A DNA stretch of 64,000 nt. Origin: a virus. Location of the stretch: positions 72,489 through 136,488 of IMG/VR virus record IMGVR_UViG_3300046779_001412; one strand, 5' to 3'. Numbering within the stretch: the first letter of the stretch is position 1; the number at the start of each line of letters is the position of its first letter. Under the pieces are notes generated by a model, which was given only the letters and a program-made list of their open reading frames with translations, had not been told where the DNA came from and ran no database searches. The position numbers and the translations under genes were made by a program. Positions 21,332 through 27,917 of this stretch are shown here, piece after piece.

Positions 21332-21407
21332 TGGTGCCGACTCCTGGTTACGCTCCAGGCTCTCACGCTCTTCAGGCGTATGCTTTCACTAGATTAGCTT
21401 AGTCGGC
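21332..21407 (-). tRNA. tRNA-Phe(GAA), non-canonical T-loop
   Basis: Loop CT-GAA-GA; T-loop AGCGTAA; CCA. Confidence 0.8.
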
Positions 21408-26627: not shown

Positions 26628-26801
26628 CCCAATATTGATATTGTAAGACAATCACAAATATTGGTCAACCATATGTTGGGATCAACACCCCAACCAGGAG
26701 TCTTACCATCTGCGTTGCCGCCACAGATTTCATGTGTCCTGTCCGCCCGTTTGTGATTTTTAATGAATCACTGGTCCTCGTTACCTTAAACATCTTGACA
26801 A

Positions 26802-26960
26802 TTACAAATTAACTATTCTAGCCTCTTGTACTTGTCTAAATCCTTGTTGCATTAGCTTGGCACGCTCGAACTTAGCTTCGATCAACTTGGCCAAATCTTC
26901 TGCTGTTAAAACATGCTCCTTAAGCTGATGCAAACTTTTTTCATCTCTATTTTCTTTCAT
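26802..26960 (-). CDS. small hypothetical protein (52 aa)
   Basis: Manual translation MKENRDEKSLHQLKEHVL...; first ORF after the attenuator terminator. Confidence 0.55.
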   Translation of the reverse strand: MKENRDEKSLHQLKEHVLTAEDLAKLIEAKFERAKLMQQGFRQVQEARIVNL

Positions 26961-26970
26961 AATACCTTAT

Positions 26971-27006
26971 AAAAACAAAAAACCCTGGAGTTTTCACTTC
27001 CAGGGT
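26971..27006 (-). terminator. intrinsic terminator of the putative attenuator
   Basis: ACCCTGGA-N9-TCCAGGGT-TTTTTGTTTTT. Confidence 0.85.
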
Positions 27007-27036
27007 CTAGTAGATTGATATTGCTTGATGCTTGAT

Positions 27037-27162
27037 CTACTCAGACCCTCTGCTATCACTATTCTCGATCGCACGGGGATATCCAAACTGGAGCCATGTA
27101 GGTAGGCCTACCAACGTTGAACATTTGTGCATCTGAGATAATGAAAGTTTTGTAGTCATCAT
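27037..27162 (-). CDS. putative attenuator leader peptide (41 aa, all 20 amino acids)
   Basis: MMTTKLSLSQMHKCSTLVGLPTWLQFGYPRAIENSDSRGSE*; ATG 7 nt after a -10 box; stop codon inside antiterminator strand. Confidence 0.7.
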   Translation of the reverse strand: MMTTKLSLSQMHKCSTLVGLPTWLQFGYPRAIENSDSRGSE

Positions 27163-27169
27163 AGTGTGT

Positions 27170-27198
27170 ATTTTACATTTTTATTTATACTAGGTCAA
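27170..27198 (-). promoter_or_regulatory. sigma70-like promoter with embedded TATAAATA late promoter
   Basis: TTGACC-N17-TAAAAT; TATAAATA in the spacer. Confidence 0.7.
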
Positions 27199-27250: not shown

Positions 27251-27613
27251 TTAACTTTTTGGCAATCCATCTACATAACGACCAAGATCACCATACAGTG
27301 CCATCATCATGGCTTCTTTGCTGCCAAAAAACGTAATACGGCGTCTGCGATCCAGATGATAGGGCCATTCCTGACCTCGATCTAATCTCAACAGCATGCC
27401 CTGACTGATCATCTGATCTCTGGGTATTACAAACTCATGACATTCTATTTCGGCTAGATCTTGAAATATCACCAACCCACGATCAGTTAGTGCCAAGCCT
27501 CCCCTGGGCCTAATGTTACGCCACCAGGTATGCATCGCAGTATCTAGGCTCACACGATGCTGCTCGGGCAGAAGCTCTAGGATTTTTTTGGTAATGTCAG
27601 CTTTGCGATTCAC
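27251..27613 (-). CDS. hypothetical phage protein
   Basis: Operon-contiguous ORF; start uncertain. Confidence 0.6.
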   Translation of the reverse strand: MNRKADITKKILELLPEQHRVSLDTAMHTWWRNIRPRGGLALTDRGLVIFQDLAEIECHEFVIPRDQMISQGMLLRLDRGQEWPYHLDRRRRITFFGSKEAMMMALYGDLGRYVDGLPKS

Positions 27614-27917
27614 TGGCAGTTCCAGTGATTGTGGGATACACCTGATCCCCTGCACGCAGCAAAACCACTGTGAACTTGTTGGTGCGGAATTGTGTATTGA
27701 GTTTTTTAGCTAAATTGATGGCATGGCCCGGATTACTAAAACTAACTTTTTTATATTTTGGGCCAGGAAATTGCTGCAACATGTTGGCTGTTTTTAGATT
27801 GATTGGAGCATTGTCAAAAAACACAGCCCATATTCCTTCACTGGCCAATACCTGCTCTGTACGATATGTATTTTTGTCAGTTAGTTCTACTAGAATTTTT
27901 GGCTTTGGTCTAGACAC
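27597..27917 (-). CDS. hypothetical phage protein
   Basis: MSRPKPKIL...KYKKVSFSNPGHA; AAGGAG RBS. Confidence 0.7.
   Translation of the reverse strand: MSRPKPKILVELTDKNTYRTEQVLASEGIWAVFFDNAPINLKTANMLQQFPGPKYKKVSFSNPGHAINLAKKLNTQFRTNKFTVVLLRAGDQVYPTITGTASESQS

Follow-up and report, generated by a model that had tools for sequence, protein, structure and literature searches.

This analysis concerns a short leader element on the minus strand of a 64,000-nucleotide stretch of viral DNA (positions 72,489 to 136,488 of IMG/VR record IMGVR_UViG_3300046779_001412; the whole stretch is referred to as the window). The record spans 136,488 bases, is estimated to be 39% complete and represents part of a giant-phage genome. 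The element consists of a promoter, a short open reading frame (ORF) and an intrinsic terminator whose 5' arm can alternatively pair with the end of the ORF, and it lies ahead of a long tRNA array. It is reasonably probable that the element is a ribosome-mediated attenuator at the head of a phage translation island and is tied to tRNA supply, with transcription probably reading through into the rows of tRNA genes only when protein synthesis is slow. This interpretation is supported by every comparative test that the sequences made available. Sequence comparison shows the ORF and its composition, two competing helices that co-vary, a fixed geometry, a gene without its own promoter behind the terminator and a location ahead of tRNA arrays; translation of the ORF, the efficiency of termination, the direction of the switch and the signal that is sensed are inferred.

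Structure and conservation of the leader

Coordinates are given in window numbering and all leader features lie on the minus strand. A sigma70-like promoter (27198-27170), scoring 10/12, is formed by TTGACC (27198-27193), a 17-nucleotide (nt) spacer and TAAAAT (27175-27170), with the ATG of the leader ORF positioned 7 nt past the -10 hexamer. The ORF (27162-27037, including the TAG stop codon at 27039-27037) encodes a peptide of 41 residues, MMTTKLSLSQMHKCSTLVGLPTWLQFGYPRAIENSDSRGSE, which contains 20 amino-acid types specified by 33 distinct codons, and no codon recurs within a stretch of at most 30. The four final codons, together with the stop codon and 2 further nt, make up the 5' arm of the putative antiterminator (AGGGTCTGAGTAGAT, 27049-27035), which pairs with the 3' arm ATCTACTAGACCCT (27015-27002) to give a helix of 14 pairs with one bulged G and a folding energy of -18.3 kcal/mol when the terminator 3' arm is withheld. 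This 3' arm overlaps the 5' arm of the intrinsic terminator (27008-26971) at 27008-27002. In the terminator, AGACCCTGGA (27008-26999) and TCCAGGGTTT (26989-26980) form a 10-bp stem with a 9-nt loop, followed by T6-G-T5. Because ACCCT is common to both helices, the antiterminator and the terminator are mutually exclusive. Promoter, ORF, stop-codon helix and overlapping terminator agreed base for base with a preliminary description of the element made from the letters of the window. The 195-nt leader RNA folded at -57.1 kcal/mol with a z score of -3.47, and one of 200 shuffled sequences folded as well. The minimum-energy fold also contained a hairpin within the ORF, designated P1 (27147-27053), in which a 5' arm at 27147-27127 and a 3' arm at 27074-27053 enclose inner helices; P1 is a candidate pause or synchronising hairpin.

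A chance baseline was obtained from 12,750 windows of 41 codons in the phage's own 51 long ORFs. All 20 amino acids were present in 1.4% of these, at least 33 distinct codons in 1.3%, and a run of at least 30 codons without a repeat in 0.09%, the last value matching the rough estimate of about 1e-3 given beforehand. The figures for a single ORF that had been picked by eye are notable but not compelling alone, and it is the relatives that carry the weight.

Close relatives were collected as four loci found through a 134-residue protein encoded upstream of the leader and 14 stretches found through a pattern of the ORF 3' end, giving 14 distinct leaders together with the window. The search pattern fixes its own columns, which therefore carry no evidence. 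In all 14 leaders frame +1 was open over 41 or 42 codons, insertions and deletions preserving the frame, while frames +2 and +3 contained one to five stops each. Twenty amino-acid types were present in ten leaders and 19 in four, using 32-36 distinct codons. The run of 30 different codons, on which the preliminary description had placed weight, proved not to be a conserved trait, with lengths of 17 to 33 among the relatives. Non-synonymous differences outnumbered synonymous ones (7 and 2 respectively between the window and locus L003) and the three codon positions varied about equally. The start codon was always kept, leaders that lose the first of two ATGs keeping the second and vice versa.

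The antiterminator was paired in 85.5% of the cells of the close-clade alignment, compared with 25-41% when the 3' partners were slid by one to three columns, and two of its pairs showed two-sided changes (four sequences have C-G in place of U-A, and one has A-U in place of G-C). Local folding of ten representatives gave the antiterminator as the minimum-energy state in four and the terminator in six, and in all ten the antiterminator state, obtained with the terminator 3' arm withheld, lay 1.3 to 5 kcal/mol above the minimum-energy fold. When the stretch under a ribosome positioned at the stop codon was blocked, the terminator formed in all ten folds. For the close clade, RNAalifold on a MAFFT alignment returned no more than the terminator and one hairpin of 4 bp. 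Since alignment is unreliable in the central part of the ORF, sequences were folded individually and swap controls were used instead.

A wider family was anchored on the pattern of ncRNA2, an unclassified RNA located behind the terminator. This yielded at least 120 viral contigs, and the family counts given here are among the matches listed. The ncRNA2 anchor is independent of the leader, so that the sample is unbiased. The base of the family comprised 115 distinct upstream regions with at least 250 nt, in which a terminator was sought within 650 nt. A strong terminator was found in 101 of the 115 distinct loci, highly conserved as GGACCC-YRGG with an A-rich 9-nt loop and a U-tract, and located about 200, 100 or 20 nt before ncRNA2. 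An ATG-started ORF of 25-63 codons, mostly 41-51, was present in 97 of the 101 terminator loci with its stop codon 23-34 nt before the terminator 5' arm, compared with 162 of 3960 random positions (4.1%) in the same loci. The leader ORF can be regarded as real. The preliminary description had looked to relatives for conservation of the ORF, of its length and of the position of its stop codon, and all three recurred in the family.

When the terminator 3' arm was withheld, 83 of 90 distinct regions paired 5 nt or more of the terminator 5' arm with the last codons or stop region. The mean number of paired nt was 7.2, compared with 3.7 for shuffled 5' regions, and the mean energy z score was -4.7. 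Swapping arms between loci with differing arms changed the energy from -13.3 kcal/mol (own arm) to -10.0 kcal/mol, the own arm being better in 87 of 93 cases, and wholly different arm sequences were matched by their own ORF ends, as in L020, L027 and L097. The antiterminator 5' strand starts 7-33 nt (mean 18) before the stop codon, which in all 97 loci lies within that strand. The distance of the stop codon from the terminator arm implies that a ribosome at the stop would leave the arm untouched, assuming the usual extent of mRNA shielded by a ribosome. Among 93 distinct regions, the minimum-energy fold of the free RNA retained the antiterminator in 62 cases and the terminator in 32. The antiterminator thus co-varies with the terminator arm, both across the family and in the close clade, as had been anticipated, and the switch between the two competing helices appears to be real. 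The sequence-level outcomes on which the preliminary description had staked attenuation, conservation of the ORF and covariation of the helix, all fell in its favour.

In 83 of 88 distinct upstream regions a sigma70-like promoter was found no further than 130 nt from the ATG. The transcript had been described as essentially leaderless, which holds for 38 of the 83 promoter-bearing lineages, where the -10 element ends no more than 12 nt from the ATG, but not for the other 45, which have a longer 5' untranslated region (with a Shine-Dalgarno-like site in 19 of these). In the window the promoter spacer also contains a TATAAATAA box (27189-27181), found as TAAATA[AG] in 72 of 88 distinct relatives and occupying the expected -10 position in some lineages. 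We take this box to resemble the late-promoter motif of T4-type phages, and a second, phage-specific promoter may overlap the sigma70-like one at this site.

Composition of the leader peptides

The 97 loci gave 92 distinct peptides, whose composition was compared with the expectation from phage amino-acid frequencies at equal lengths. All 20 amino acids were present in 56 of the 92 peptides, compared with 4.4 expected. The excess persisted when the peptides were clustered, with 24 of 53 containing all 20 at less than 60% identity (2.6 expected), 18 of 35 at less than 50% (2.1 expected) and 10 of 14 at less than 40% (1.2 expected); for the 18 of 35 the Poisson-binomial tail probability was 2.6e-15. 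Three controls were applied. The neighbouring proteins encoded behind the terminator (69 distinct sequences of 40-59 residues, described below) contained 14-19 amino-acid types and never all 20 (0/69), frames +2 and +3 of the same RNAs gave 2/92 and 0/92 respectively, and nucleotide shuffles gave an expectation of 2.7.

The 35 clusters below 50% identity were represented by one peptide each for further analysis. Trp was present in 100% of these representatives (64% expected) and occurred exactly once in 91%. Cys was found in 86% (53% expected), with a single occurrence in 74% and a relative position that varied widely, from 0.1 to 1.0. Counts of Asp, Glu and Val reached about one half to two thirds of those expected, and that of Ser about twice the expectation. 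Because the rare residues are mostly single and the abundant Asp, Glu and Val are under-used, the composition is flattened towards 'one of each'. The runs or enrichment of codons for one or a few sensed amino acids that are typical of attenuators were not found in these leaders. The comparison indicates that the amino-acid composition of the leader is selected.

Given the peptides, synonymous-codon diversity amounted to 1173 distinct codons compared with 1107 expected (t = 5.8). This excess is a real effect of small size, to which local RNA constraints may be contributing. The name 'pan-codon' leader that had been suggested is therefore apt in part, since presence of all amino acids is conserved but the signal at the codon level is modest. 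The accompanying proposal that diversity rather than the peptide sequence would be kept agrees with the family data for amino acids, as the peptide drifts.

The alphabet of the leader was compared with the downstream tRNA genes in 18 loci whose arrays are apparently complete. Leaders with all 20 amino acids precede arrays of 14-20 isotypes, and leaders with 18 amino-acid types, such as that of L070, precede arrays of 6 isotypes. The idea that a leader spells out the isotypes of the array behind it therefore fails in this family.

Proposed mechanism and alternative explanations

The promoter would start an RNA that opens, at or near its 5' end, with the leader ORF. The antiterminator would form as soon as it is transcribed, making read-through the default state. 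Since the hairpin within the ORF does not compete with the antiterminator, unlike the arrangement in amino-acid operons, an untranslated leader should read through. If no ribosome is present, or if it is delayed before the last quarter of the ORF, the antiterminator would form first and the polymerase would proceed into a 52-residue ORF (ORF52), ncRNA2 and the tRNA array. A ribosome keeping step as far as the last codons or the stop codon would unwind the antiterminator 5' strand, allowing the terminator to fold and transcription to end. The hairpin within the ORF could hold the polymerase until the ribosome arrives. A closing helix of this kind was found in the window and in many relatives, the ORF bodies of the 35 representatives having a mean z score of -1.43 relative to dinucleotide shuffles, with 16 of 35 below -1.5; the pausing of the polymerase itself is a prediction. 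The long closing helices differ in sequence by lineage. As the ORF holds all 20 amino acids, any shortage of an aminoacyl-tRNA, or slow elongation in general, should raise read-through, and read-through on shortage would act as negative feedback on the phage's own tRNA supply.

The position of the next gene bears on the role of the terminator. ORF52 (26960-26802) has an AAGG Shine-Dalgarno site and an ATG 19 nt past the terminator stem. Of 97 loci, 72 have an ORF52-like gene with a Shine-Dalgarno site downstream of the terminator, its start lying mostly 17-22 nt beyond the stem, and in 15 further loci ncRNA2 was located within 60 nt of the terminator. The spacing of 17-22 nt leaves no room for a promoter, so that ORF52 needs read-through. 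The need of downstream genes for read-through in turn argues that the terminator is not merely the end of a transcription unit.

A more specific form of the attenuator, in which the leader gauges the aminoacyl-tRNA pool over the full alphabet, is put forward tentatively, at somewhat less than even probability. In this form a ribosome would have to decode each amino acid at least once in order to arrive at the end of the ORF early enough for termination, and the loss of any single tRNA species would switch on the island, which comprises the small protein, the unclassified RNA, 20-35 tRNAs and the transfer-messenger RNA (tmRNA). Host anticodon nucleases, starvation or a decay of host tRNAs induced by the phage could cause such losses, and the island would be turned off once decoding recovers. 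If this form is correct, viral tRNA genes in a large clade of uncultured giant phages would be under a conserved homeostatic control that responds to defence.

It is rather unlikely that the attenuator instead gauges general translation capacity (ribosomes, coupling, elongation factors or inhibitors), with the all-20 composition being secondary. The geometry, which needs only a late or missing ribosome, would suit such a gauge, as would the response of vmlR-type attenuators to translation inhibitors described in PMC9226507 and the induction of the Anabaena tRNA operon by general translational stress described in PMC8421152 and PMC10272220; it leaves unexplained, however, the 56 all-20 peptides against 4.4 expected, the presence of one Cys whose position shifts, and a composition that is flattened.

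Another improbable explanation is that the leader encodes a functional micro-protein, the terminator being a leaky gene end and the helix at the stop region stabilising the mRNA. The ORF is indeed conserved together with start signals, Trp occupies a fixed mid position and the motifs AI.NS and DRTPE recur. The codons of the conserved residues are fixed as well, however. In the largest subfamily (35 peptides) near-invariant codons include ACA in 30/30, GAT in 35/35, GAG in 33/34, CCA in 30/35 and CAA in 25/25 sequences. Since conserved residues retain fixed synonymous codons in otherwise divergent sequences, the constraint lies at the nucleotide level, and elsewhere the peptide drifts almost neutrally. 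Four leader peptides searched against Pfam and PHROGs matched no family, and a real small protein, that of the neighbouring gene, never contains all 20 amino acids. The micro-protein explanation also has to contend with a helix whose 3' strand is common to the terminator and co-varies, and with a next gene that has no promoter of its own. On balance the peptide itself appears not to be the selected object.

Within the main subfamily, the D-R-T-P-E stretch in the 3' third of the leader (L024, L030, L036, L065 and 31 further loci) is nearly invariant including the third codon positions, which suggests a conserved RNA site for pairing, pausing or binding.

That the transcript is an independent structured small RNA, terminated at this site and containing the ORF only incidentally, is very improbable: small stable RNAs do occur in phage tRNA regions and both the 195-nt RNA and the ORF bodies are structured, but the ORF is open in 97 of 101 loci compared with 4% by chance, insertions and deletions in the close clade stay in frame, the start codon is always kept and the composition signal is specific to frame +1.

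Several observations weigh against the attenuator. The free RNA of the window favours the terminator by about 3 kcal/mol in folding, so that termination without a ribosome may already be substantial in this phage. Leaderless starts, or those with a weak Shine-Dalgarno site, may be poorly translated. On an assumed ribosome reach of 13 nt, stalling would leave the antiterminator free at codons for a mean of only 17.6 of 19.1 amino-acid types. Glu in 15 of 35 and Asp in 10 of 35 representatives occur in the final codons alone, and a ribosome halted there would cover the antiterminator. A promoter lies before the first tRNA gene in the window and in about half of the relatives, so that the tRNAs would not depend on read-through alone, and the promoter scan was sigma70-like, so that phage-specific promoters would escape it. 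Two metatranscriptome runs yielded no usable cover of the leader, and two error-free contigs from RNA libraries lie only within the upstream gene (27504-27678 and 27325-27471). The type of the tmRNA hints at a betaproteobacterial host.

The attenuators of amino-acid operons comprise those of trp, his, leu and phe and the multivalent ones of thr and ilvGMEDA. The phage leader resembles them in having a short leader ORF, an intrinsic terminator, an antiterminator sharing a terminator strand, a stop codon inside the competing structure and a possible pause hairpin, and in the trp leader a hairpin pauses the polymerase until the ribosome arrives. In those operons the location of the ribosome determines which structure forms, as is proposed for the phage leader. 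The phage leader differs in being without tandem or enriched codons, every amino acid being present and the rare ones mostly once. It also has a longer ORF and gates a small ORF, an unclassified RNA and tRNA genes instead of biosynthetic enzymes. The T-box is likewise a leader with a terminator and an antiterminator that reports tRNA charging, but it binds one uncharged tRNA directly and is not translated, while the phage leader carries an ORF and gave no match to the T-box model.

Elements of the vmlR type have very short upstream ORFs and drug-dependent arrest. They report the general state of translation, as the phage leader would; they gate bacterial resistance factors, whereas the composition of the phage leader points to all codon families and its targets are tRNA genes. 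In the Bacillus subtilis vmlR attenuator, as described in PMC9226507, termination is relieved when a ribosome slows down on a short upstream ORF. The trn operon of Anabaena sp. PCC 7120 is described as containing 26 tRNA genes that are silent until translational stress, under the control of promoter repeats and the repressor TrcR (PMC8421152, PMC10272220). Like the phage it has a long accessory tRNA array, whose expression in Anabaena rises when translation is impaired, and it differs in that control is exerted at the promoter; the main text of PMC8421152 contains 'attenuat', 'leader' and 'terminator' 0 times each. The Anabaena operon is the nearest published case of regulated accessory tRNA arrays. 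By its sequence the phage element has the structure of a leader-peptide attenuator, lacks the enriched codons of that class, would gate different genes and stands outside any described attenuator family. Among the titles and abstracts listed by full-text literature searches, no leader-peptide attenuator before phage tRNA genes and no leader ORF with all amino acids was found.

Why phages carry large tRNA arrays and when these are expressed is an old open question, for which codon compensation and the replacement of degraded host tRNAs are among the proposed roles. Phage tRNAs have also been described as a means of escape from tRNA-cleaving defences (PMC10264068, PMC11464382). If the attenuator interpretation is true, the arrays would be regulated by the state of decoding itself, and attenuation would be extended from one or a few amino acids to all, from enzymes to tRNA genes and from cells to viruses. 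The comparative data define about 90 distinct leaders with matched terminators. These are accompanied by a family of small proteins and by an unclassified RNA motif of wide occurrence.

Downstream genes and genomic context

The proposed translation island would take in the small ORF, the unclassified RNA and the tRNA array, and extend to a tmRNA some 17 kb away. The ORF52-like proteins are 40-59 residues in length with a conserved L-T-x-E-Q ... L-I-x-x-K-x-E-R-A pattern. ORF52 gave no Pfam match, a profile search of the PDB returned nothing below E = 0.07, and no match suggested a ribbon-helix-helix (RHH) protein. One of four homologues gave a weak match to phrog_20536, a family of unknown function (E = 1.3e-4). 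A single low-depth RNA joint connected 26753 to 26978, its shorter side being 25 letters, and probably derives from a relative without the 52-residue ORF. Most other pieces from RNA runs were less than 90% alike and fell on tRNA genes of other organisms.

ncRNA2 (26790-26675, boundaries approximate) contains a hairpin with an AACGAGG loop, a AAACGGGCGG box and further helices. It occurs with two variants of its 3' half and sits between the leader or ORF52 and the first tRNA gene in the window and in L019-L130; it matched no Rfam family. A second sigma70-like promoter (26668-26640, 10/12) lies between ncRNA2 and the first tRNA gene, as the preliminary description had cautioned in placing an internal promoter near 26665. 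Among 82 distinct loci, 41 had no sigma70-like site of at least 10/12 between the terminator and the first tRNA gene, and 28 had none of at least 9/12.

The tRNA array of the window (26261-19686) contains 23 tRNA genes according to ARAGORN, the first being tRNA-Lys (26261-26185). ARAGORN called no tRNA-Phe, tRNA-Asn or tRNA-Val in this array, although the leader contains Phe, Asn and Val. At 21335-21407 on the minus strand the Rfam tRNA model matched with 43.3 bits at the E-value threshold, at a site where ARAGORN made no call. Close-clade leaders with downstream sequence lie upstream of same-strand arrays of up to 28 tRNA genes in differing gene orders. In the family, at least five same-strand tRNA genes were found in 70 of the 75 loci with at least 2.5 kb past ncRNA2, with up to 35 in the available sequence, and the other five loci are read as chance pattern matches. 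The leader does therefore stand at the head of a tRNA array as had been described, but the first genes that it would gate are the 52-residue ORF and the unclassified RNA, not a tRNA.

At 9948-9573, about 17 kb past the leader, the phage encodes a betaproteobacterial-type tmRNA in permuted (two-piece) form, with 135.5 bits to RF01850 and 125.6 bits to RF04321 and a tag of ANAANDEIFALAA (ARAGORN). The same tmRNA is present in L006. Between 9000 and 29000 the minus strand has two strong terminators, that of the leader and one at 9597-9578 that ends the tmRNA, and the tmRNA with its terminator hints at a long 'translation island'.

An Rfam scan gave no family over the leader, raising the E-value limit to 1 adding only a 16-bit chance match on the terminator. 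At gathering score the window held tRNA and tmRNA only, with no T-box or other cis-regulatory family. A blastn search in 'distant' mode against GenBank phages gave no match for the leader region of the window or for a typical family member. The nearest GenBank relatives, seven records of PA5oct-like Pseudomonas phages, are very distant and align at about 66% identity along 524 nt of a gene for an exonuclease/RNase H.

The protein of 134 residues encoded upstream of the leader (27251-27655, minus strand) was found in four related contigs at 72-91% identity and matched no Pfam or PHROG family. When genome contigs were scanned with the ncRNA2 pattern, the leader was present in two of at least 120 matches listed, L225 (8 kb of a 183-kb contig, with 20 tRNAs) and L218, and the remaining 118 listed matches are read as chance. 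Both are assigned to bins of metagenome-assembled genomes from Bacteroidota (Haliscomenobacter sp. and an uncultured Bacteroidetes), and they are probably giant-phage contigs placed in bacterial bins. The DNA sequencing runs containing the stretch are labelled as freshwater or lake metagenomes.

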